This document shows, in pieces, positions 15,307-62,941 of a DNA stretch of 64,000 nucleotides. Each line of letters opens with the position of its first letter. Position 1 is the first letter of the stretch. Under the pieces are notes generated by a model, which searched no databases, was not told the origin of the DNA, and saw only the letters and a program-made list of their open reading frames with translations. Source of the stretch: Octopus vulgaris (taxonomy: Eukaryota). Location of the stretch: contig OX597821.1 in the NCBI GenBank assembly GCA_951406725.2, forward strand, positions 33,046,001 to 33,110,000, written 5' to 3'. The translations under genes were made by a program, and so were the position numbers.

Positions 15307-15399
15307 TAATAAATAACAATAGGGTAATAAGTTAGGATATACAGGCAGTTAGTTTTACAGGTGGATCTGGCTGTGTGTATATTTGAAATCTAAAGGCTG

Positions 15400-15471
15400 T
15401 CCCACTGATGAAGACTGGCCTTCAGCAAATATATTTTTTTCTTGGAAATAGTTAGAAACCATGGTCTGGGA
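15400..15471 (+). ncRNA. Minimal type I hammerhead ribozyme in a small element between (TA)n tracts
   Basis: UCCCA-CUGAUGA-AGACU...AGUUA-GAAA-C-CAUG-GUC^-UGGGA; palindromic loop CAUG. Confidence 0.8.
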
Positions 15472-15615
15472 AATAATTGAGATGATAAACGTTTTTAATT
15501 TTCATTCCTTTCGAGAATTTATCCTTAATTGGTGGTTTGAGTTTTCTACTGCTCTTTCTAGTACAAGGCTTTCCTATTTGGAAGCCTCTTGTATTTCTAT
15601 GTATGTCTCTCTCTC

Positions 15616-30218: not shown

Positions 30219-31321
30219 AGGATGGACTGTGATGGTGAATGTAACAACACTGCCTTTACCAACTGACATAGCAAATGACAAAAAAAGAGCATAACTTCAG
30301 TAGATCCAGATTTACAAAAGCTGTACTAACAGTCGTTGATGAGGTGGGATAGAGATTTAAAGTGATACAAGAGTTTGCTATTAATGGCTGTCTCTAATAC
30401 TTTTGAAATGCTGGGAATGAGCTGGGAAAAATCAGAAAATTCAGAAATCCAGGACATGTATGGTCCCAAGCTTGCCAGATACTTCATTTGAATATAAATG
30501 AATACTCTGTGTGTATGTGTGTAGATATAGATATACAAATGAGCATGACAGGACTCTGTGATAGAAGAGGATGCCATGTTTGGATACAGGACACACTTTT
30601 CTGGATTTATAAAAACCAGGATGACTCAGTGGTTAGAGCATCAAGCTCACAATTATGAGGTGGTGAGTTCAATTCCCAGACCTGGATGTGTGTTGTGTTC
30701 TTGAGCAACACAGCTCCAGTTCACTCAGCTGTAGAAATGTGTAGTGACATCACTGTGGCCAAGCCTTTGCCTTTCTCTTGGATAACATCGGTGACATGGA
30801 GACGGGAGGCTGGTATGCATGGGCAACTGTTGGTCTTCCATAAACAATCTTGCCCAGACTTGTGCCTTGGAGGGGAACTTTCTAGGTGCCATCCTACAGT
30901 CATTCATGATTGATGGGGGTCTTTACCCAAAAGATCAGAAAATACCACAGTAGAGAGGATGAGATCAAATAATTGCAAAGTGAACTTTCTAACCATTTGG
31001 CCTTGTTTGCACTTACAATACATTACTGTACATATGTAGACATAACTACAAACACACACACCACCTTCATCATCATAAAAATATAAATAGCTACCATCTT
31101 AAATACAAATGATAAACATACACATACATTACACAGTACACACACACAGAAACATACACATACATTACACACAGTACACACACAAGAAACATACAATTTA
31201 CACACTGTAACAACGCATACAGATACATCATAGGCAATACATACACAAAACAGACATCCTTATACAAATATACACAGTCACACATCATACAGTATTTTCA
31301 ATACAAACATTCATACAGAAG

Positions 31322-33462: not shown

Positions 33463-35040
33463 TTAAACATATGGGCAACTTCCTTTTGTTAAACTGAAAG
33501 GCATCACCCACTCTGGATTAAGCATGCAGTCTCCCAAACTTGGACCTTTTCCCCGTTGAATTAATTTACACCAACTACATTAATTCCAATTTAAAGGGCC
33601 AAAGAGATACAACGCTTAATTTTCTTTTCTCTTTTTTCTCATTCCACTTTTTTACTTTCTTCTCCATTTTTGTTTTCTCAAAGACCAGCATCCTTACAAG
33701 TTTTTTTTTCAAAAAAGACTAGATTTGTACATTTGAATCTGGAAGATTGTTTGGAAACACAGCGCACTATACAAGCTGGTGTGACCATCATGTTTTCACA
33801 GCATGAAACTAGTAGTATAATTTTATATATACATATACATATACATATAATCATCATCATTTAATATCCACTTTCTATGCAGGCATGGGTTGGACAGTTT
33901 GACAGAAGCTGGCCTGGTAGAAGACTACCCAAGGCTACTGTGTCTGTTTTGGCAGGATTTTTGCAGCTGGATGCCCTTCCTATCACCAACCACTCCACAG
34001 AGTGAAATGAGTGCTTTTTTGTGGCACCAGGATAGGTGAGGTCAGTTTTGGCATAGTTTCTACAGCTAGATGCCCTTCCAAATGCCAAACACTTTACAGT
34101 GTGGACCAGATGCTTTTTAAGTGGCACCAGCACCAGTAGGGTCACAAGTAACTTGCAAGACAGGGAATTTTGAGAAGAGAGGGGGTATTGGAAAAGGGGA
34201 TCTTGTGTCAGATGACTACTTATCCAGCTACCAGGAGTACTGTGCAATCATCATCGTCACCACTTAATGTCTGTTTTCCATACTGGCATGGGTTACAATT
34301 ATATATACTGAACCCTGTATTGAGTAAACAGATTCTGTTTTTGAAGTTGGTTAATTTGCACATTGTATGTTAACAAAACAGTTTTTTTCTTTCCTTTGTA
34401 CCTATATTTGTTAAACAAATCATGTTCTTCAACTTACTTCATATAATTTTCATCCTACAAACCATTATACTCTATACATGATACAGTGGAGGCACATGGC
34501 CTAGTGGTTAGAGCAGTGGACTTGCGTTCTAGGGATCGCGGGTTCGAATCTCAGACAGGGCGAAGTGTGTGTTTATGAGCGAAACACCTAAGCTCCACAT
34601 GGCTCTGGCAGAAGGTAATGGCAAAACTTCTGCTGACTCTTTCACCACAACTTTCTCTCACTCTTTCCTCCTACGACGGACTGGCGTCCCATCCAAGTGG
34701 GGAACCTATACGCCAAGAAACCGGGAAACCGGCCCTTATGAGCCAGGCATGGCTCGAGAAGGTACAAGGTATACATGATACAGTATGATATGTTTTTAAG
34801 GATTTTAAATGGATTAATACATATCAAACAGAAGCTGCTTTAGAAGTGTGTTAATTTGAATTAGTTAAATACAATTTAGTTCTTTAATTTTCATAGTTTA
34901 TTTTATATTTTAAGCATATATTTAGACTGTGTCCAGAAAATTCAGAAATCCAGGACATTTATGGCCCCAAGCTTGACATATACTTCATTTGAATATAAAT
35001 GAATACTCTGTGTGTATGTGTGTAGATATAGATATACAAA

Positions 35041-37298
35041 ACAACAGACAGACCATCATAGGTGTATGGGATATATATGTGAAGTTATATCGAGTAAAAT
35101 TATGCAACAGTTCATGTAAATATAGTTCATATGCCTAGACGTTTCCTTAGATCTAAATAAGAATATCTATAAGCCTTATAGGAAGCCCAATGATAGACTT
35201 AGTTATATTAATGTAGGTTCATGCCATCTCCCTATAGTATTCAAAAATTTAGTTTAAAATATTAGTAAGAGAATATCTAGCCTCTCCTCCAATAAGGACA
35301 TTTTTAATAGCGTTGCCCCAGTTTATAATAAGGCTTTAAAAGATAGTAGTTTTAGTGAAAAAATAAAATATACACCTGTTACTAGCCCAACAGTAAAGAA
35401 GAGGAAAAATAGAAATAGGAAGATCATCTGGTTTACACCCTTACTCACCCGAGGTGACCTTCAATATAGGTAAATATTTCTTAACACTGATAGACATTTT
35501 CCAGTTAACCATACTTATAGGAAACTCTTCAATAAACACAATTTAAAAATTAGTTTTAGTTCAACTACCAATTTTAAAAATATAATCACACATAACGCAA
35601 AAAAACCACAAGAAAACAGCTGTTCATGCAGGAATAAAAAATTGTGCCTGCTAAATGGAGCTTGCATGTCCGAGACCATCATCTATGAAGCTACCGTGGA
35701 CTCTATAACCACTAAAGACACCGTTTCGACGAAGAAATACGTGGGCCTTACAGAGTGTTTTTCAAGGCCAGGTTCAATAACCACACCTTGAGTTTTAGGC
35801 ACTGGAACAAAAGAAAAGCGACAAAATTATCTAATCATATTTGGTCTTTAAAAGATAAAGGTGTCGATTATAACATCCATTGGAAGATTTTGGCCAAATG
35901 TAAGCCCTACACCAATGGCAGCGGAAAGTGCGGTCTATGTGACATGGAGAGATGGCTTATCTGGAAAAGCAGCTTAGACCCTACTACATATCTAAACTCA
36001 AAGACAGAACTTTTCGGATCATGCCCACATGTGACAAAATTTTTGTTACATTTTTGGTCCCCTAAAGAAAACAGATAGAACTTGCTTTCCATATTATGTC
36101 TCAAAAAGTTTTTTTTATCTCATTATACCTTTTATTATTTCATATATTTTTATATTTTCACACATAATAATTTTTATCCTGCATTTTTTCCTGTGCCTAT
36201 ATAGACGAGTATACAGACTCATTTGTACACGTGTGTGAATATGTATGAGTGGGCAGTTTTAGATGTGTGCGTGTGTGCGGGCATAAGAATGCATATATAT
36301 ATATAGACATTTTTACTTAGTATTTTTCCATTTTTTTAGGGGTTTTTTAGGGGGGGGCATATGTATATTCATTTTTCGTATATGCGTGTGTGTATGCGTA
36401 TACAAACATGTGCGGGTATGTACATATATGGGCGTGTGTGTGTATGAGTGCATGTCCATATATGAACGTGGTTTTTATGCTTTGTATACTTCCTTATGTT
36501 TTTTTCTGTTACTTTTAACCATGTTTTTTCTTGTGCTTGTGCATATATAGACGTATGTATGAACTTTTACAGTACGAATGTGTGTATGTATGAGTTTGTA
36601 TATATATGCGTATACATTTGGCGAAAAATGCTAGTGAAGATGTGTACGTTTTCATAGTGACGTATAAGTACGCACGTGGGTCCGCGAGCGCACATGTGAG
36701 CATATGACTAGCCATGTTTACGTGTTTACTATGAAATTTTAATCTTATTTTATATAAGTAGCAGAATTATTACACAGTAATTTCCCTTTATATAACGGTA
36801 TTTTTTCATAGTGTTTTTTCAGCTGGCCAGATAACCAAAGAGATGGTGTTGTGGTTTTCCACTTCGGCATCTGAAACTCAGAGTTTTATCTTGACTATTG
36901 AGTAATTGTAACATATTATTTTATAGATATATATATACATTAACTACTGCAGTGAATTGTTTATGCGGTATTTATTTCCGGAAATTTGGCGCACTGGCCG
37001 AGGGCATTAACTATGAATGTAATAGGCCACACTGATCGCATTTTTGGCCTCGTGTTAATATATGGTGTGCAGTTCAACAAATTATATTCTTGACAGACTC
37101 TACTGACGATCTGCAAATTAACTGTGTAAGTAAAATTGCATAATTTGTTAACAGTGAAACAATTGTATGGGGTTAATCTATATTTTTGTTATTTTCCATT
37201 TGTCCTGCCCACTTACGTTCATGGTGTGCTAAATTATTTCTTGAGAACAACTTTTAGTGGCTAGCGTAAGGGAGTTCACTTTTAGTGGATTCCCTCTC
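35041..37298 (+). mobile_element. 5'-truncated, decayed Penelope-like retroelement (RT C-terminus, GIY-YIG endonuclease, long 3' region with HHR)
   Basis: Frameshifted translation DLNKNIYKPYRKPND..YINVGSCH, RKIIWFTP, CSCRNKKLCLLNGAC, IIYEATV...YVGLTECFFKARFNNH...CGLCDME..LN..EL..CPH (ORF 35755-36078), the PLE RT-thumb/Cys-linker/GIY-YIG order; ends at a (TA)n tract. Confidence 0.88.
37096..37174 (+). ncRNA. Minimal type I hammerhead ribozyme in PLE 3' region
   Basis: GACUCUA-CUGACGA-UCUG...CAGU-GAAA-C-AAUU-GUA^-UGGGGUU. Stem I with G:U pairs; first stem II position mismatched. Confidence 0.75.
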
Positions 37299-37299
37299 A

Positions 37300-37334
<35 letters not shown>

Positions 37335-37392
37335 ACATATACACACACACACACACACACACACTCTATATAACACACACACATATATATAT

Positions 37393-37439
<47 letters not shown>

Positions 37440-37524
37440 CATACATTTATATACATATACATACATACATCTATATACATTTATATACGTACATACATTT
37501 ATATACATTCATACATTTATATAC

Positions 37525-37565
<41 letters not shown>

Positions 37566-37670
37566 TGTATGTATAGATATATAAACCACAAAAATACATG
37601 TTTCCCATGAAAGTCAGTACGATTGTTAGCTCACACGGACAGGGCAAATAAAAATAACAAATACAGATTA

Positions 37671-37751
37671 TTTTGGGACAATTGTTTCGCTATTAATGAA
37701 TTAAATGTAAATTTACTTACAATAAAATCCACTTGTAGCTTTCAGCCAAAA
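37671..37751 (-). ncRNA. Hammerhead motif with 1-nt core deletion (probably inactive)
   Basis: tgtagctttcagcc instead of tgtagctcttcagcc, i.e. CUGAAAGC in place of CUGAAGAGC. Confidence 0.7.
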
Positions 37752-38201
37752 CTATCTGGATGAAATCCACTCAATCACACGCCAGATTTTACCATAACGA
37801 TAAATACGCGTGTGGTTCAATTGATTACATCCGACGTTATAATTCAAATGCCCCAACTAACAGCGCGCCAAATTTTCACGGAAAACAAATACAGCATTTA
37901 GAAATAAATGCAGCATAATTATAATTAATTAATAAGGGTGAGAGAATTAGATACTAATTTAATAGTATATCTATTCTACACCAAGTGGCCTAGTGCTCCG
38001 AGAAACCTGGATTATTATAATATTTTATAATATATTATAATATTTTTACAAAATAAATATAAGAGAGTGGTCACTATATGGCTCACTCTAGCACCAGTTA
38101 ATCCAAAAGGTTTCAACCACAAAAATACATGTTTCCCATGAAAGTCAGTACGATTGTTAGCTCACACGGACAGGGCAAATAAAAATAACAAATACAGATT
38201 A

Positions 38202-38283
38202 TTTTGGGACAATTGTTTCGCTATTAATGAATTAAATGTAAATTTACTTACAATAAAATCCACTTGTAGCTCTTCAGCCAAAA
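38202..38283 (-). ncRNA. Minimal type I hammerhead ribozyme (array, minus-strand intact copy)
   Basis: Reverse complement of the array HHR with intact CUGAAGA/GAAA core. Confidence 0.88.
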
Positions 38284-39135
38284 CTATCTGGATGAAATCC
38301 ACTCAATCACACGCCAGATTTTACCATAACGATAAATACGCGTGTGGTTCAATTGATTACATCCGACGTTATAATTCAAATGCCCCAACTAACAGCGCGC
38401 CAAATTTTCACGGAAAACAAATACAGCATTTAGAAATAAATGCAGCATAATTATAATTAATTAATAAGGGTGAGAGAATTAGATACTAATTTAATAGTAT
38501 ATCTATTCTACACCAAGTGGCCTAGTGCTCCGAGAAACCTGGATTATTATAATATTTTATAATATATTATAATATTTTTACAAAATAAATATAAGAGAGT
38601 GGTCACTATATGGCTCACTCTAGCACCAGTTAATCCAAAAGGTTTCAACCACAAAAATACATGTTTCCCATGAAAGTCAGTACGATTGTTAGCTCACACG
38701 GACAGGGCAAATAAAAAATAACAAATACAGATTATTTTGGGACAATTCATGGGAAACATGTATTTTTGTGGTTGAAACCTTTTGGATTAACTGGTGCTAG
38801 AGTGAGCCATATAGTGACCACTCTTTATATTTATTTTGTAAAAATATTATAATATATTATAAAATATTATAATAATCCAGGTTTCTCGGAGCACTAGGCC
38901 ACTTGGTGTAGAATAGATATACTATTAAATTAGTATCTAATTCTCTCACCCTTATTAATTAATTATAATTATGCTGCATTTATTTCTAAATGCTGTATTT
39001 GTTTTCCGTGAAAATTTGGCGCGCTGTTAGTTGGGGCATTTGAATTATAACGTCGGATGTAATCAATTGAACCACACGCGTATTTATCGTTATGGTAAAA
39101 TCTGGCGTGTGATTGAGTGGATTTCATCCAGATAG

Positions 39136-39217
39136 TTTTGGCTGAAGAGCTACAAGTGGATTTTATTGTAAGTAAAATTACATTTAATTCATTAATAGCG
39201 AAACAATTGTCCCAAAA
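39136..39217 (+). ncRNA. Minimal type I hammerhead ribozyme (array copy 1)
   Basis: UUUUGG-CUGAAGA-GCUA...UAGC-GAAA-C-AAUU-GUC^-CCAAAA. Stem I 6+ bp, stem II 4 bp, stem III 2 bp with palindromic loop; predicted cut after 39211. Confidence 0.9.
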
Positions 39218-39668
39218 TAATCTGTATTTGTTATTTTTTATTTGCCCTGTCCGTGTGAGCTAACAATCGTACTGACTTTCATGGGAAACATGTATTTTTG
39301 TGGTTGAAACCTTTTGGATTAACTGGTGCTAGAGTGAGCCATATAGTGACCACTCTCTTATATTTATTTTGTAAAAATATTATAATATATTATAAAATAT
39401 TATAATAATCCAGGTTTCTCGGAGCACTAGGCCACTTGGTGTAGAATAGATATACTATTAAATTAGTATCTAATTCTCTCACCCTTATTAATTAATTATA
39501 ATTATGCTGCATTTATTTCTAAATGCTGTATTTGTTTTCCGTGAAAATTTGGCGCGCTGTTAGTTGGGGCATTTGAATTATAACGTCGGATGTAATCAAT
39601 TGAACCACACGCGTATTTATCGTTATGGTAAAATCTGGCGTGTGATTGAGTGGATTTCATCCAGATAG

Positions 39669-39750
39669 TTTTGGCTGAAGAGCTACAAGTGGATTTTATT
39701 GTAAGTAAATTTACATTTAATTCATTAATAGCGAAACAATTGTCCCAAAA
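39669..39750 (+). ncRNA. Minimal type I hammerhead ribozyme (array copy 2)
   Basis: Same core and stems as 39136-39217, 533 bp downstream. Confidence 0.9.
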
Positions 39751-40201
39751 TAATCTGTATTTGTTATTTTTTATTTGCCCTGTCCGTGTGAGCTAACAAT
39801 CGTACTGACTTTCATGGGAAACATGTATTTTTGTGGTTGAAACCTTTTGGATTAACTGGTGCTAGAGTGAGCCATATAGTGACCACTCTCTTATATTTAT
39901 TTTGTAAAAATATTATAATATATTATAAAATATTATAATAATCCAGGTTTCTCGGAGCACTAGGCCACTTGGTGTAGAATAGATATACTATTAAATTAGT
40001 ATCTAATTCTCTCACCCTTATTAATTAATTATAATTATGCTGCATTTATTTCTAAATGCTGTATTTGTTTTCCGTGAAAATTTGGCGCGCTGTTAGTTGG
40101 GGCATTTGAATTATAACGTCGGATGTAATCAATTGAACCACACGCGTATTTATCGTTATGGTAAAATCTGGCGTGTGATTGAGTGGATTTCATCCAGATA
40201 G

Positions 40202-40283
40202 TTTTGGCTGAAGAGCTACAAGTGGATTTTATTGTAAGTAAATTTACATTTAATTCATTAATAGCGAAACAATTGTCCCAAAA
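40202..40283 (+). ncRNA. Minimal type I hammerhead ribozyme (array copy 3)
   Basis: Same core and stems as 39136-39217. Confidence 0.9.
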
Positions 40284-40734
40284 TAATCTGTATTTGTTAT
40301 TTTTTATTTGCCCTGTCCGTGTGAGCTAACAATCGTACTGACTTTCATGGGAAACATGTATTTTTGTGGTTGAAACCTTTTGGATTAACTGGTGCTAGAG
40401 TGAGCCATATAGTGACCACTCTCTTATATTTATTTTGTAAAAATATTATAATATATTATAAAATATTATAATAATCCAGGTTTCTCGGAGCACTAGGCCA
40501 CTTGGTGTAGAATAGATATACTATTAAATTAGTATCTAATTCTCTCACCCTTATTAATTAATTATAATTATGCTGCATTTATTTCTAAATGCTGTATTTG
40601 TTTTCCGTGAAAATTTGGCGCGCTGTTAGTTGGGGCATTTGAATTATAACGTCGGATGTAATCAATTGAACCACACGCGTATTTATCGTTATGGTAAAAT
40701 CTGGCGTGTGATTGAGTGGATTTCATCCAGATAG

Positions 40735-40816
40735 TTTTGGCTGAAGAGCTACAAGTGGATTTTATTGTAAGTAAATTTACATTTAATTCATTAATAGCGA
40801 AACAATTGTCCCAAAA
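40735..40816 (+). ncRNA. Minimal type I hammerhead ribozyme (array copy 4)
   Basis: Same core and stems as 39136-39217. Confidence 0.9.
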
Positions 40817-40959
40817 TAATCTGTATTTGTTATTTTTTATTTGCCCTGTCCGTGTGAGCTAACAATCGTACTGACTTTCATGGGAAACATGTATTTTTGT
40901 GGTTGAAACCTTTTGGATTAACTGGTGCTAGAGTGAGCCATATAGTGACCACTCTCTTA

Positions 40960-41004
<45 letters not shown>

Positions 41005-41013
41005 ATACATACA

Positions 41014-41054
<41 letters not shown>

Positions 41055-46234: not shown

Positions 46235-46611
46235 AAGATGTACTTGCATAGCGAGTGACTTGATCTGAAATCGTGTGCTGGAACGAAAACAATTGCAGCA
46301 TGGAAGGTGTTTATAAGCCATTTAAGAAACACACAAAACCGTTAGATTCACTACAACGTGTAAAATTTAATTTGTCGAAATATTTTCGTCGCTTTGAGAC
46401 TGCAACCTGTTCACTGACAAAACTTCGTGCTGCACGAAAAGATGCAGCACAAAGTTTTGTCAGTGAATAGGTTGCAGTCTCAAAGTGACGAAAATATTTT
46501 GACAAATTAAATTTTACACGTTGTAGTGAATTAAATTTAAATGTTGAAGTGAATCTAATGGTTTTGTGTGTTTCTTAAATGGCTTATAAACACCTTCCAC
46601 GCTGCAATTGT
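46235..46611. mobile_element. Fold-back element with 12-bp TSD and HHR-like motifs
   Basis: TSD ttatttgctatg at 46223-46234 and 46612-46623; long inverted arms centred near 46438. Confidence 0.75.
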
Positions 46612-47034: not shown

Positions 47035-47472
47035 GGATCATTTCGGTTTGAACGGCAGTTTTTTCGAGCGGTGCCATATGAAATTGTCACCCATAATTAT
47101 GACCCTAGTATCGAGCTATTGCATTTCAATCTATTTTAGGGTTAGGGTTAGTTAGGATTAGGGTTAGGGTTAGGGGTGGGAGAAGGGTATCTTTTTTCTT
47201 CACAAATGTAAATAAACCCAATCTGTTTCTTAAACGAGGGACATATTCATACGGCACAGAATGTTTTGTTACGTCAATGGACGTCAGTAATTGGTTGAAA
47301 CTGCAGAAATTGAAGAGAAAAAACAACAAATATCTTACAAACTATAGAATTTTCTCAATAAAGCCAAGAGAAAAAGATGTTTTATAAACACATTCTACCA
47401 GTATACGAAGTTTAAAATTTTTTAGTTACCTAGAAATTATATTAAAAACTGCCGTTCAAACCGAAAAGATCC
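47035..47472. mobile_element. Same MITE family, opposite orientation
   Basis: Both TIRs; 8-bp TSD cataaacc. Confidence 0.9.
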
Positions 47473-55470: not shown

Positions 55471-55789
55471 CTTTGATAAGTAATCGAATTCTTTGCGAAA
55501 ATTTAAAGCTCAAGTCAGATTTCTGTTTATCTTTGGCTGCTTTGATATGTCGTATATTCTGCCATTTACTGTGTCCAGCCATTGTTTTTACAAGAAGCGT
55601 CCAACAACATTGTCGACAAGGAGCCTGATAGAATTCTAGAGAGGATTTTGGCATGCCTATAGCACGAAATAAACATCTGGGTTTGTTTGAAACTAAACTG
55701 AGTCTGGCCGATTGAGAAAACAACCGTATGTGAAAAACATGATGTTGAAAGTTCAAAATACAACGTGCGAATTTCAGCGACGGAAACAT
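55471..55789 (-). CDS. TACO1: Translational activator of cytochrome c oxidase 1 (YebC/PmpR family), exon 1
   Basis: Basic, Arg/Ser/Leu-rich N-terminal extension (mitochondrial presequence-like), then the YebC signature MAGHSKWQNIRHIKAAKD. Ends ATC AAA G|gtaggt, phase 1, 319 nt. Confidence 0.95.
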
Positions 55790-56483: not shown

Positions 56484-56549
<66 letters not shown>

Positions 56550-56698
56550 GGTACAAGCAATTAAGATTCAAGTGAGCTCTGTTGAATTCACATGAATATG
56601 GTGCTTAACTTAGATGCACCAGAAATCTATATGGTGTTAACCATACGATAATACGGGGTGATTATACATAGGAAAAAAGCAACAAGAATGGATCAATA

Positions 56699-56787
56699 TT
56701 TCGGTACAATTGTTTCGTACGAAGACAGCTTTATTAAGGCTACAAAAATTGCAGTAAATATAAGTGACCCGTACTCATCAGCCGAAA
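56699..56787 (-). ncRNA. Minimal type I hammerhead ribozyme (left arm of fold-back element)
   Basis: Reverse complement of 57108-57196. Confidence 0.88.
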
Positions 56788-57107
56788 AAACATCTGAGAT
56801 CTCCAAACATCAAAGGGGGTGATGTTACACTCATGAAACATCATGGAAAGTTCTATAAAAATGAGATTTAGATAACAAATGGACTTCAAAAAGTTTTTTT
56901 AGTATTGCACAGTCATATATCAGGTTTAAAAAAAATTTTAAACCTCTTAGTTTTCCAGAAAATGAAGATGAAAGTGAAGATGTAAATCTATCCATATTGA
57001 AGAAAGCTTGATTCCTGGAGATATGATGAGAGGTATCAAACTCACAGAATATGTATTTATCCATATATAGTCCATAGTAAAGTGTGATTCAAGATGTGTG
57101 ATGATAT

Positions 57108-57196
57108 TTTCGGCTGATGAGTACGGGTCACTTATATTTACTGCAATTTTTGTAGCCTTAATAAAGCTGTCTTCGTACGAAACAATTGTACCGAAA
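57108..57196 (+). ncRNA. Minimal type I hammerhead ribozyme (right arm of fold-back element)
   Basis: UUUCGG-CUGAUGA-GUACG...CGUAC-GAAA-C-AAUU-GUA^-CCGAAA; perfect stems I and II. Confidence 0.9.
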
Positions 57197-57222
57197 TATT
57201 GATCCATTCTTGTTGTTTTTTT

Positions 57223-57272
<50 letters not shown>

Positions 57273-57416
57273 AAATCCACTCACAAGGCTTTGGTCGGCC
57301 TGAGGCTATAGTAGAAGAAACTTGCCCAGGGTGCCACGCAATGGGACTAAACCCGGAACCATGTGGTTGGTAAGTAGCTTGCGCCTATATATATATATAT
57401 ATATATAGCCACTGCG

Positions 57417-57526
<110 letters not shown>

Positions 57527-57789
57527 AATGAGATAGGGGTTGAAAATCCAACCCACCATGGGATAACATATATGCCTTTACTGTTATGTAATGGTGTAAT
57601 AAAGTATTGATTGGGTATCATCTGATGGTTGATGTTTGATTGATTTAAGTATGTTTCTCCATTTTCTAATTTTGTAGTATATATATATATATATATATTC
57701 TATTTTCATTCCTTCACTTCCTTCTGCATTTCATATCTTCTCTACAATAACTATTACTTAAACATTTTCTCGCACCTTCTCTAATGAAG

Positions 57790-58651
57790 GAGGGGTCTCC
57801 AGCATCAGTGTCGGCGACCACAGCTTGCAGGTGGTGAACGAGTTCACTTACCTGGGATCGACGATCTCCAGCAGCCTGTCCCTCGAGCCGGAGCTGAACA
57901 GACGGATTGGGAAGGCTGCTGTTACCATGGCTAATCTCTCCAGGAAAGTGTGGGAAAACAACATGCTCACAATAACCACCAAGATCGCAGTGTACCGAGC
58001 CTGCGTGCTGAGCACCCTACTCTACGGCAGTGAGAGCTGGACAACATACACCCGGCAGGAATGCCGCCTCAGCGGCTTCCACATGCGGTGTCTTCGACGG
58101 ATCCTTGGCATCTCCTGGAAGGACCGAGTACCAAACGGAGTCATCCTGGAACAGACTAATATGCCAAGCATGTATGCCCTCCTCGTGCGGAGACGACTGC
58201 GCTGGCTCGGACACGTCTGCCGCATGCAGGACGGTCGCATGCCTAAAGACATCCTGTACAGCGAACTCACCACGGGATCCCGACCCAAGGGACGTCCACA
58301 GCTACGATACAGGGACGTGTGCAAGCGCGACCTGAGGACTGCCAACATCTGTGTGGACACGTGGGAGGAAACAGCTGCTGACCGCTCTGCCTGGCGTCGG
58401 ACGGTGAGGAAAGGCGTTTCCATGGCTGAGGAGAGGAGAGCACAGCTGTGGTTGGACAGGCGGGACAGGAGGAGGACAACTGCAGCAACACCCCACACAT
58501 ACCCATCGATGTTCGTGTGCAGCAACTGTACCAAGGACTGCCACTCTAGAATTGGACTGTTCAGTCACAGCAGACGCTGCACATCATCAAAGTAGGCCCC
58601 ACCCTTGGCGAAACCCATTGTCTATCAAGACAGACGGGGAATAAGATAAGA

Positions 58652-58703: not shown

Positions 58704-58988
58704 ATAAAATAGGGTAAAACTAATTAATTTGGAATAATCATTAATTTCACCAAGTAGATTTCGGCATGTAAAAGCCTCGTTCGAGGAAAGTTTAAGTAAT
58801 ACTAAGTAATTAAGGGTTTAGCAACGATTTGCCTCACCACACACCGAATTTAGAAATAGCAGTCAAAGAGTTATAGCTATTCTTTCTACTAAAGGGGAGA
58901 TCTCAGTAAAACCACAGCACTTGAAAGGCAAACACAAACAGGCAAGAGAGAAAGAAATGACAGCAATCTATCATACAATTTTAAGTCA

Positions 58989-59079
58989 CCTACGGACGTA
59001 CGTTTCGAGATTAAGTTTTAGGAAAGCATAAGAATTAGATAATTATGTCTTACCCAACTTCTTCTCTCATCAGCGTAGG
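58989..59079 (-). ncRNA. Minimal type I hammerhead ribozyme (left arm of fold-back element)
   Basis: Reverse strand reads CCUACG-CUGAUGA-GAGA...UCUC-GAAACGUACGUC^CGUAGG, with a fully Watson-Crick stem I. Confidence 0.9.
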
Positions 59080-59253
59080 ACACTACAATTATGAATAATT
59101 GTATATTAAATTTCGAGATACTAGAAGGCATCATCTCAACTCAGTATCAGAGCGAGCTAAAACCGTTACCAGTATCACTAAATTCAAAGTGTGAATGAAA
59201 GTTTGTGTCAGCAGCCCCTAAATTTAATATACAATTATTCATAATTGTAGTGT

Positions 59254-59344
59254 CCTACGCTGATGAGAGAAGAAGTTGGGTAAGACATAATTATCTAATT
59301 CTTATGCTTTCCTAAAACTTAATCTCGAAACGTACGTCTGTAGG
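59254..59344 (+). ncRNA. Minimal type I hammerhead ribozyme (right arm of fold-back element)
   Basis: CCUACG-CUGAUGA-GAGA...UCUC-GAAA-C-GUAC-GUC^-UGUAGG; palindromic loop GUAC. Confidence 0.88.
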
Positions 59345-59555
59345 TGACTTAAAATTGTATGATAGATTGCTGTCATTTCTTTCTCTCTTGCCTGTTTGTG
59401 TTTGCCTTTCAAGTGCTGTGGTTTTACTGAGGTCTCCCTTTTAGTAGAAAGAATAGCTATAACTCTTTGACTGCTATTTCTAAATTCGGTGTGTGGTGAG
59501 GCAAATCGTTGCTAAACCCTTAATATATTATATATATATATATATAGCCACTGCG

Positions 59556-62225: not shown

Positions 62226-62941
62226 ATACCAGACTCTGTCTTTCATTTCATTATTTTACAAACTATATTTTTCTTTTCAAATTATATTGATGTTGTATTC
62301 AACTTCTGTGTTAAATACCTTTATTTGTAGTAGTTTTCCTAACAAAAGCTCTTAACTATTGAATTCATAGAAAATACATCAACAATAATTAATTTAGGTG
62401 CTATTTCAACTAAAGTTTGTTTCTTCATAAAGATTATTTCTATTGTGATTGTTTTTGAACGGGGCTTGTCTATTTCACTTGTACTAGTTTCTGAGTACGT
62501 GTCTTTGCAAACGATCTTTAATTGGCACAAAAGACTGCTTTTTTAATTGGGCAAGAACTTAAAGGAAATCTTGTAATTTATACTTACTTTTTAAATAATT
62601 AGGTCGGGATTTCCCGGGAAATAGAATGCAATCACAGATATTTTCCGGTGCATTTTTAGCCAAATTTCCAGGGATTTCCGAAATCCCAGAAGAAAAACTT
62701 CGGTATAAATATTATTTTTATATTCTACCAACAAGTTCGGAAGGGGTCTATTTTTATTGGCATATAGAAAATAAAACGAAAAAAAGAATCATATATATAA
62801 CTAATTCTTGTTACTAAACCTGTGACCAGTCTATTAATTTCTCACACACGTAGCTGCGTCGGGTCGGTACTGAGGAAATGCAAAGGGAACAAGAATGCTG
62901 AAAACACTTATAGTTCTTTTTATTGTTTATTGGCTTAAAGG

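Follow-up and report, generated by a model that had tools for sequence, protein, structure and literature searches.

A 64,000-nucleotide (nt) stretch of the Octopus vulgaris genome (assembly GCA_951406725.2, contig OX597821.1, positions 33,046,001 to 33,110,000 of the forward strand; hereafter the window, in whose own numbering all positions are given) carries a tandem array of 533-bp non-coding units with a type I hammerhead ribozyme motif, close to the remains of a Penelope-like element (PLE). We find that the array unit shares ancestry with the block lying behind this PLE. The array is probably a retrozyme without long terminal repeats (non-LTR retrozyme) with its origin in the 3′ end of a sister PLE lineage; a PLE protein likely pasted it into the locus as a multimer. 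The neighbouring PLE is not the parent of the array but a dead cousin sitting in the same microsatellite. The window consists of microsatellite-rich animal DNA, with 18 clusters of long TA runs; the 533-nt period of the array was missed by Tandem Repeats Finder, whose period limit was 500.

Homology between the array unit and the block behind the Penelope-like element

Local alignment of positions 36903-37310 with positions 39471-39902 of the array gives 272 identities in 381 ungapped columns. Under each of three scoring schemes, this score is higher than that of any of 300 dinucleotide shuffles (z of 15 to 29), and the upstream, ribozyme and downstream thirds of the alignment each do the same when taken alone. 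The first 40 bases are AT-rich filler; the firm block, at 36945-37298 on the forward strand, matches 39503-39891 at 238 of 340 positions (70%, or 59% with gaps counted). Its score against the unit is 483, while 210 real stretches of the window reach a mean of 149 and a maximum of 214. About 145 nt of the 533-bp unit lack a counterpart in the PLE tail, and positions 36080-36900 do not align with the unit (47 to 261 of 300 shuffles score as high). Two unrelated hammerhead elements of the window, here called B and C, serve as a natural control, since they align neither with the unit nor with the PLE tail: among 12 comparisons of flanks between the four hammerhead families, significance was reached only in the two that pair the PLE with the unit (z of 9.1 and 4.9, all others at most 2.2). 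At the level of the nucleotide sequence, these comparisons confirm that the shared ancestry of block and unit is real, specific and beyond chance.

A previous sequence-only reading of this DNA had proposed this homology. All the matching words that it quoted between the PLE tail and the unit are present, and the alignment held against composition-matched shuffles, none of the 300 reaching its score. The place that it gave, 36945 to 39260, does contain the homologous block; the array, however, extends from 37584 to 40968, past that end, and the arm nearest the PLE lies on the opposite strand.

The PLE is represented by an open reading frame (ORF) at 35126-36078 on the forward strand, which is 5′-truncated and broken by one in-frame stop and about three frameshifts. 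It retains the reverse transcriptase (RT) thumb, a CxCX5C linker and a GIY-YIG endonuclease. As read from the translations, CCHH is absent, and CxxC and CxH surround a conserved E and N. From the thumb to the C-terminus, the ORF is collinear with the full-length RT-endonuclease proteins P0110, P0160 and P0163 (tblastn, E of 1e-24 to 3e-49); the N-terminal part, where RWK and DKT motifs would lie, and the RT core are missing from this copy; the relatives P0110 and P0160 carry DKT. The HMMER search returned 3675 protein relatives, of which eight clusters were inspected and none bore a name, and the word-based search one match; Pfam gave no match above the cut-off for five peptides. A CxCX5C linker without CCHH, together with CxxC and CxH, is described as characteristic of the Hydra clade (Craig et al., 2021, PMC8557442). 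By eye, the thumb is identical to that of Hydra-1_Obim at 58 of 85 residues. By these sequence features the neighbour is a decayed Hydra-clade PLE, which resembles the published Hydra-1_Obim and its clade in motifs and, if the block behind it is its own end, in its (TA)n target and in having a hammerhead near its 3′ end, but differs from Hydra-1_Obim in its ribozyme and in its 3′ untranslated region (UTR), the latter being much longer. A 107-bp repeat at 34934-35040, 96% identical to another at 30433-30539, abuts the 5′ end of the fragment.

Downstream of the ORF, a T/G-rich, low-complexity spacer on the same strand (36079-36940), the presumed 3′ UTR, ends in a decayed TA run at about 36924-36940 and is not homologous to the unit. 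The block that follows is the presumed 3′ end, or pseudo-LTR, of the PLE. Its hammerhead has a predicted cleavage site 131 nt before the junction with (TA)n, and a 12-bp hairpin (37269-37295, forward strand; z of -3.5, 0 of 200 shuffles) lies just before the element ends at the microsatellite. The linkage of this tail to the ORF is seen in one copy, and the block could instead stem from an earlier event, in which a sister retrozyme or pseudo-LTR inserted on its own into a TA run downstream of the PLE. The homology would then be between two retrozymes and would not bear directly on Hydra-clade PLEs. TA-like sequence on both sides of the block, the unusually long, unaligned spacer of 860 nt and the existence of several sister subfamilies would fit such an event, as would seven contigs of sequencing run X10 that switch to (TA)n at 39500, the equivalent of the 5′ edge of the block. 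However, Hydra elements are reported to carry a hammerhead universally near the 3′ end and no other was found between 36060 and 36960, even allowing one core mismatch, so that the block is the only candidate for the end of this PLE. The block also lies on the strand of the ORF, its stem II has the U.U base found in many Hydra PLEs, and an excess of T over A runs on from 36000 to 37200; in addition, TATA-like runs can be seen by eye to precede the ribozyme in published Hydra consensi. We therefore regard a solo insertion as unlikely and retain the block as the presumed PLE end.

Stems of the hammerhead motif

The motif in the PLE tail spans 37096-37174 on the forward strand, with predicted cleavage after 37167. 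Hammerheads were sought with a descriptor of our own, built on the usual hammerhead numbering and core consensus, which gave 12 matches in the window: the PLE motif, five copies in the array, the inverted pair of element B (56698-57197), that of element C (58988-59345), and a further two, both weak, starting at 15398 and 62863. Between the PLE tail and the unit, 17 of 19 letters of the core and stem III are common, and 3 of 14 in stem I. Despite differences at 11 of its 14 letters, stem I keeps all seven pairs in both sequences, through five two-sided changes and one one-sided change, with one pair unchanged; slid registers pair at one to five of the seven positions, and full pairing is expected for 0.3-1% of background 7-mers. 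The stem I differences exceed what is expected at the divergence of the flanks (binomial 0.0002-0.005), which suggests that the two sequences separated long ago, with blocks that stayed conserved on either side of a helix free to covary. When all four families of hammerheads are compared, pairing holds in 26 of the 28 cells of stem I, a value that none of 500 shuffles attains (slid registers, 29-61%); the count of pairs with two-sided changes is equalled by 24 of 500.

Stem II behaves differently from the compensatory helix that had been claimed. It is mostly conserved, with two pairs unchanged, one changed on both sides, and a U.U at its base in the PLE where the unit has G-C. We considered that the U.U could be a sign of decay and dropped this idea, since by our own count the same U.U stands at the stem II base in 14 of 26 rows of the published Hydra hammerhead table. 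The stem II domain measures 46 nt in the PLE, 51 nt in the unit and 46-60 nt over the four families; at 46 nt, that of the neighbour is about twice the longest among the 26 Hydra rows (PMC8557442). The word TGTAAGTAAA, previously quoted as shared, is indeed common to both sequences but does not form a simple loop: it makes a small hairpin at the tip of the 46-51-nt domain.

In all four families stem III is a perfect 8-nt palindrome, ACAAUUGU in the PLE, the array and element B, and a different one in element C. Palindromic stem III is a hammerhead form reported to be active as a dimer. A single 2-bp stem III is predicted to cost about 1 kcal/mol and the duplex to gain 6.4, and the cleaved monomer is predicted to fold with stems I and II formed (P of 0.93-0.99). 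In the wider repeat family described below, 20 substitution rows were found, three of them inside the ribozyme (39679, 39698 and 39710), at one free core position and two loop positions. The stem I pairing, its persistence over four families and the placing of the family variants at free or unpaired positions support the earlier proposal that the hammerhead fold has been under selection.

Layout, family and origin of the array

The array consists of two divergent arms joined 5′ to 5′ with a 2-nt overlap, and both end in (TA)n. The left arm (37584-38747, reverse strand) holds 2.19 units, with an intact hammerhead at 38201-38284 and a second site that lacks a core G at 37740; its 5′ end falls 5-7 nt before a cleavage site and its 3′ end 94 nt after one. 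The right arm (38746-40968, forward strand) holds 4.17 units, with intact hammerheads at 39135, 39668, 40201 and 40734. Thus, with our descriptor, five of six complete sites are intact, four of them consecutive. The reference unit (39279-39811, forward strand) has 32% GC, no ORF of 25 or more amino acids starting with ATG on the forward strand, a 52-residue antisense ORF and no tblastn match to seven PLE proteins. Units are more than 99% identical, with five differences in all across the array, those in the left arm being single-base deletions.

The PLE end and the array are separated by 285 bp of (TA)n-rich microsatellite (37299-37583), the target common to both, with a 14-nt motif at 37564. 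The right flank (40968-41053) is composed of (TA)17, an inverted copy of this motif and (TA)19. A plain target duplication cannot be read in (TA)n; instead, the flanks 37528-37583 and 40968-41053 repeat one another in inverted orientation for about 56 nt, including the 14-nt motif, which occurs nowhere else in the window. The inverted copy is possibly the product of a template switch within the self-complementary (TA)n.

These inverted flanks, and the single-base deletions of the left arm, are what would be expected if the inverted layout or the unit count came from a fold-back read or a collapsed repeat in the assembly. Such an artefact appears highly improbable, since the arms are not mirror images (starts, ends and lengths differ), elements B and C share the two-arm inverted layout, and the sequencing runs contain the opposite-strand joint in one contig (run X1) and the 533-nt joint in three of four runs. 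Besides, the homology finding does not depend on the layout.

The unit belongs to a widespread family. Half or more of its sampled words are contained in 20 of 23 listed runs, from 10 studies and under 8 organism labels, none of the runs being registered as RNA. Four of the 23 runs were aligned to one unit, contig depth here not being a measure of copy number; they yielded 2363, 1228, 748 and 104 family contigs, covering 30 of 30 bins and with varied loose ends. PLE-like states are common in these contigs (A at 39710, an extra TT at 39759), and loose ends resembling PLE 37078-37095, just before stem I, occur in three of the four runs (among the 24 listed of 227 loose ends), which indicates that intermediate subfamilies exist. 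Two alleles rare in the family are carried by both arms, namely T at 39710 (five of six copies; below 1% of depth in all four runs) and A at 39547 (six of six copies; 0-7% in the family), and point to one template for the whole array. Ten contigs of runs X5 and X8 depart from the unit at 39925 into other sequence (median 255 letters in X8), a candidate for a sister family or for the start of an autonomous partner.

The ends of the arms also bear on the mode of insertion. Measured from the predicted cleavage site, the 3′ ends lie at 94 and 147-158 nt in the array, at 131 nt in the PLE, at 34 and 156 nt in element B and at 186 and 291 nt in element C. The 3′ end of the right arm (40957-40968) is within 11 nt of the position that aligns with the PLE end, with a hairpin before both; by a hand estimate, two arms copied from a 533-nt circle would show such a coincidence with a probability of at most about 10%, so this match gives modest support. 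The right arm starts 28 nt upstream, modulo 533, of the end of the left arm, an offset that fits two-ended priming on one template. Twin priming is known from work on L1.

In the mechanism that we infer, a multimeric transcript would be cut at GUC by pairs of hammerheads, which complete their weak stem III through the shared palindrome. Stem I would then keep both monomer ends close to each other, so that they could be ligated into a circle. The PLE endonuclease would cut both strands of a (TA)n tract, and reverse transcription would start from both DNA ends, at points 94 and about 150 nt downstream of the ribozyme. If reverse transcription went more than once round the template and the far ends were joined, two divergent arms would result. 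A Hydra-type protein likely inserted the multimer in one event. PLEs have been proposed as helpers of retrozymes (Cervera and de la Pena, 2020, PMC7229834), and inverted 5′-truncated copies, tails, unequal 3′ ends and a (TA)n bias are known PLE traits (for further background, PMC4209133 and PMC6765202). Purified protein of the Anolis PLE Poseidon cuts and extends both strands in vitro from two internal sites downstream of the hammerhead, giving unequal ends as in the array layout (Frangieh et al., 2024, PMC11167929). Poseidon belongs to another clade, however, its tail measures 30-40 bp as against end offsets of 53-64 nt in the array, 122 nt in element B and 105 nt in element C, and its insertion in vitro did not need hammerhead cleavage.

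Two routes to tandem retrozymes have been published. In the first, PLE enzymes copy a circle into a multimer that is inserted; in the second, a PLE end expands locally. Following the second (the satellite route of Li, Clavereau and Pollet, bioRxiv 10.64898/2026.07.22.740005), a PLE-derived monomer or short inverted insertion would have expanded in place by unequal crossing-over or slippage, with the ribozyme as baggage. This would also yield near-identical units, and Xenopus multimers are reported to cluster in few regions. We nevertheless hold it to be very unlikely here: both arms exceed two units, so that each would have had to expand on its own, both stop within the target microsatellite and as far from the ribozyme as is typical of PLEs, and the family keeps the core and stems. 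Both junctions, the joint between the arms and the rare shared alleles have been kept at this locus, and favour the insertion of a multimer.

The earlier claim that the array derives from the terminal region of a related PLE subfamily is borne out by the homology, the flank controls and the family intermediates, the lineage being related and not the neighbouring one. The further suggestion that the locus captures the birth of a retrozyme is not supported. That the array was born here from the neighbouring PLE copy might be read from their 285-bp adjacency and the matching 3′ end position, but it is hardly credible: units more than 99% alike are only 70% identical to the PLE tail, a 30% divergence with two-sided stem changes that neutral decay in place could not have produced, the part of the unit without tail counterpart would have to be accounted for, the family is spread under 8 organism labels, and (TA)n is likewise the site of the two unrelated hammerhead elements. 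The PLE and the array probably lie together by virtue of a common preference for (TA)n as target. The adjacency needs no special cause, given the 18 TA-run clusters, the fact that all four hammerhead elements of the window end in long TA runs, and the reported habit of PLEs of inserting beside older copies.

Several observations weigh against a PLE-derived, ribozyme-driven origin of the array. The hammerhead lies about 1020 nt past the PLE stop codon, behind the spacer and a short TA run, while in five novel Hydra consensus ends this distance is, by eye, about 100-310 nt. The PLE tail has a best fold of its own without stems I and II (P of about 0, the hammerhead lying 6.6 kcal/mol above the free fold), a consensus fold of the two sequences chose other helices and did not recover the hammerhead stems, and the covariation is drawn from four sequences. 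The circular monomer has a minimum free energy with z of -5.8 (0 of 60 shuffles as low), but the antisense strand also scores -5.8; strand-specific folding was therefore rejected as a sign of selection, and the strong overall fold is no evidence of selection on the RNA. No hammerhead is among the 102 Rfam matches in the window at E up to 1, which are hairpin and microsatellite noise. The loss of a single core base in the left arm may be genuine or may stem from faulty assembly. The copy at 39177 carries the letter of the family majority, and a single circle would need an error, conversion or polishing to produce it. Finally, in Xenopus, no cleavage was seen for eight of nine predicted retrozymes tested.

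As regards known systems, the array resembles the animal non-LTR retrozymes (PMC7229834) in being a non-coding tandem of low GC in which each unit has a type I hammerhead motif and the monomer is predicted to be self-paired; the short palindromic stem III is also found in those amphibian retrozymes of that study that cleave as dimers. It differs in its unit length (533 bp against 150-450 bp), in its 51-nt stem II domain, and in its insertion into (TA)n as two divergent arms that lack a plain target duplication, which in retrozymes, when present, exceeds 4 bp. A PLE origin of retrozymes is already published for vertebrates. The Xenopus study (bioRxiv 10.64898/2026.07.22.740005) compares retrozymes with PLE pseudo-LTRs and makes the same central claim as we do for the array: 24 of 57 families, with units of 51-972 bp, match known elements, nearly all at PLE termini. 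That study is mostly on vertebrates, shows the sequence link in no genus but Xenopus, reports a coral as the sole carrier of Hydra PLEs, and prefers amplification in place; our case concerns an octopus, a Hydra-clade neighbour and junctions pointing to multimer insertion. The consulted passages of PMC8557442 describe no non-autonomous partner of the Hydra clade, and no octopus or Hydra-clade retrozyme was met in the literature searched, in which subscription journals were thinly covered and the supplement of PMC7229834 may hold invertebrate cases.

From this locus the Hydra clade emerges as a candidate source of helpers for an invertebrate retrozyme, and the vertebrate result is extended to a cephalopod. 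The array also belongs to a class of hammerheads with long stem II, present as four families in 64 kb and missed by Rfam, so that surveys may undercount such elements. A bolder proposal, which we think quite unlikely, is that the octopus has a large retrozyme family parasitic on Hydra-clade PLEs, whose multimers are inserted by two-ended rolling-circle reverse transcription, which has kept the helper's stem III palindrome and rewritten stem I, and whose RNA may trigger cleavage of the helper through a mixed double hammerhead. If so, the retrozyme would be a trans-acting regulator of its helper, with stem I keeping ligation family-specific.

Other elements of the window

Element B (56549-57224) is an inverted pair of type I hammerhead motifs between (TA)n tracts, with 126-bp arms, a 58-nt stem II domain and flanks unrelated to the unit; it gave no match to seven Hydra-type proteins. 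A likeness between the array and element B downstream of the ribozyme was not accepted (z of 2.2, 9 of 300 shuffles). Element C (58704-59524), also an inverted pair of hammerhead motifs between (TA)n tracts, has 305-bp arms that are 99% complementary, a 60-nt stem II domain and the palindrome ACGUACGU; the innermost pair of stem I is G-C in one of its copies and G.U in the other. The resemblance of its end to the linker of the unit was rejected (z of 1.6, 20 of 300 shuffles). The inverted junctions of the array and of elements B and C, at 38746, 56788 and 59113, all lie at most 120 nt upstream of a predicted cleavage site, a figure that is biased, since it was the ribozyme scan that led to B and C. 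The weak descriptor matches at 15398-15473 and 62863-62927 were not used; that at 15398, whose stem III is palindromic, may be a decayed copy. In a metagenome pattern scan, real homology to the unit, the tail or the PLE peptides was found in none of 42 loci.

Elements B and C lie 0.8-3.7 kb upstream of an exon of a TACO1/YebC-like gene (PF01709) at 55472-55789 on the reverse strand, whose identity is 99% to an Octopus sinensis protein, 72% to an O. vulgaris protein and 54% to an Argonauta protein, which marks the host as an Octopus. An ORF of 277 amino acids at 57762-58595 presumably corresponds to the 3′ part of an RTE-type non-LTR retrotransposon. The same 11-nt motif occurs in a TA context at 57408 and 59547, bracketing 2.1 kb with this RTE-like fragment and element C, and may be a target duplication. 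Elsewhere, a short, degenerate (TTAGGG)n run is found at 47136-47175, and a near-perfect inverted repeat of 107 nt at 46385-46491 is possibly a small derivative of a DNA transposon.

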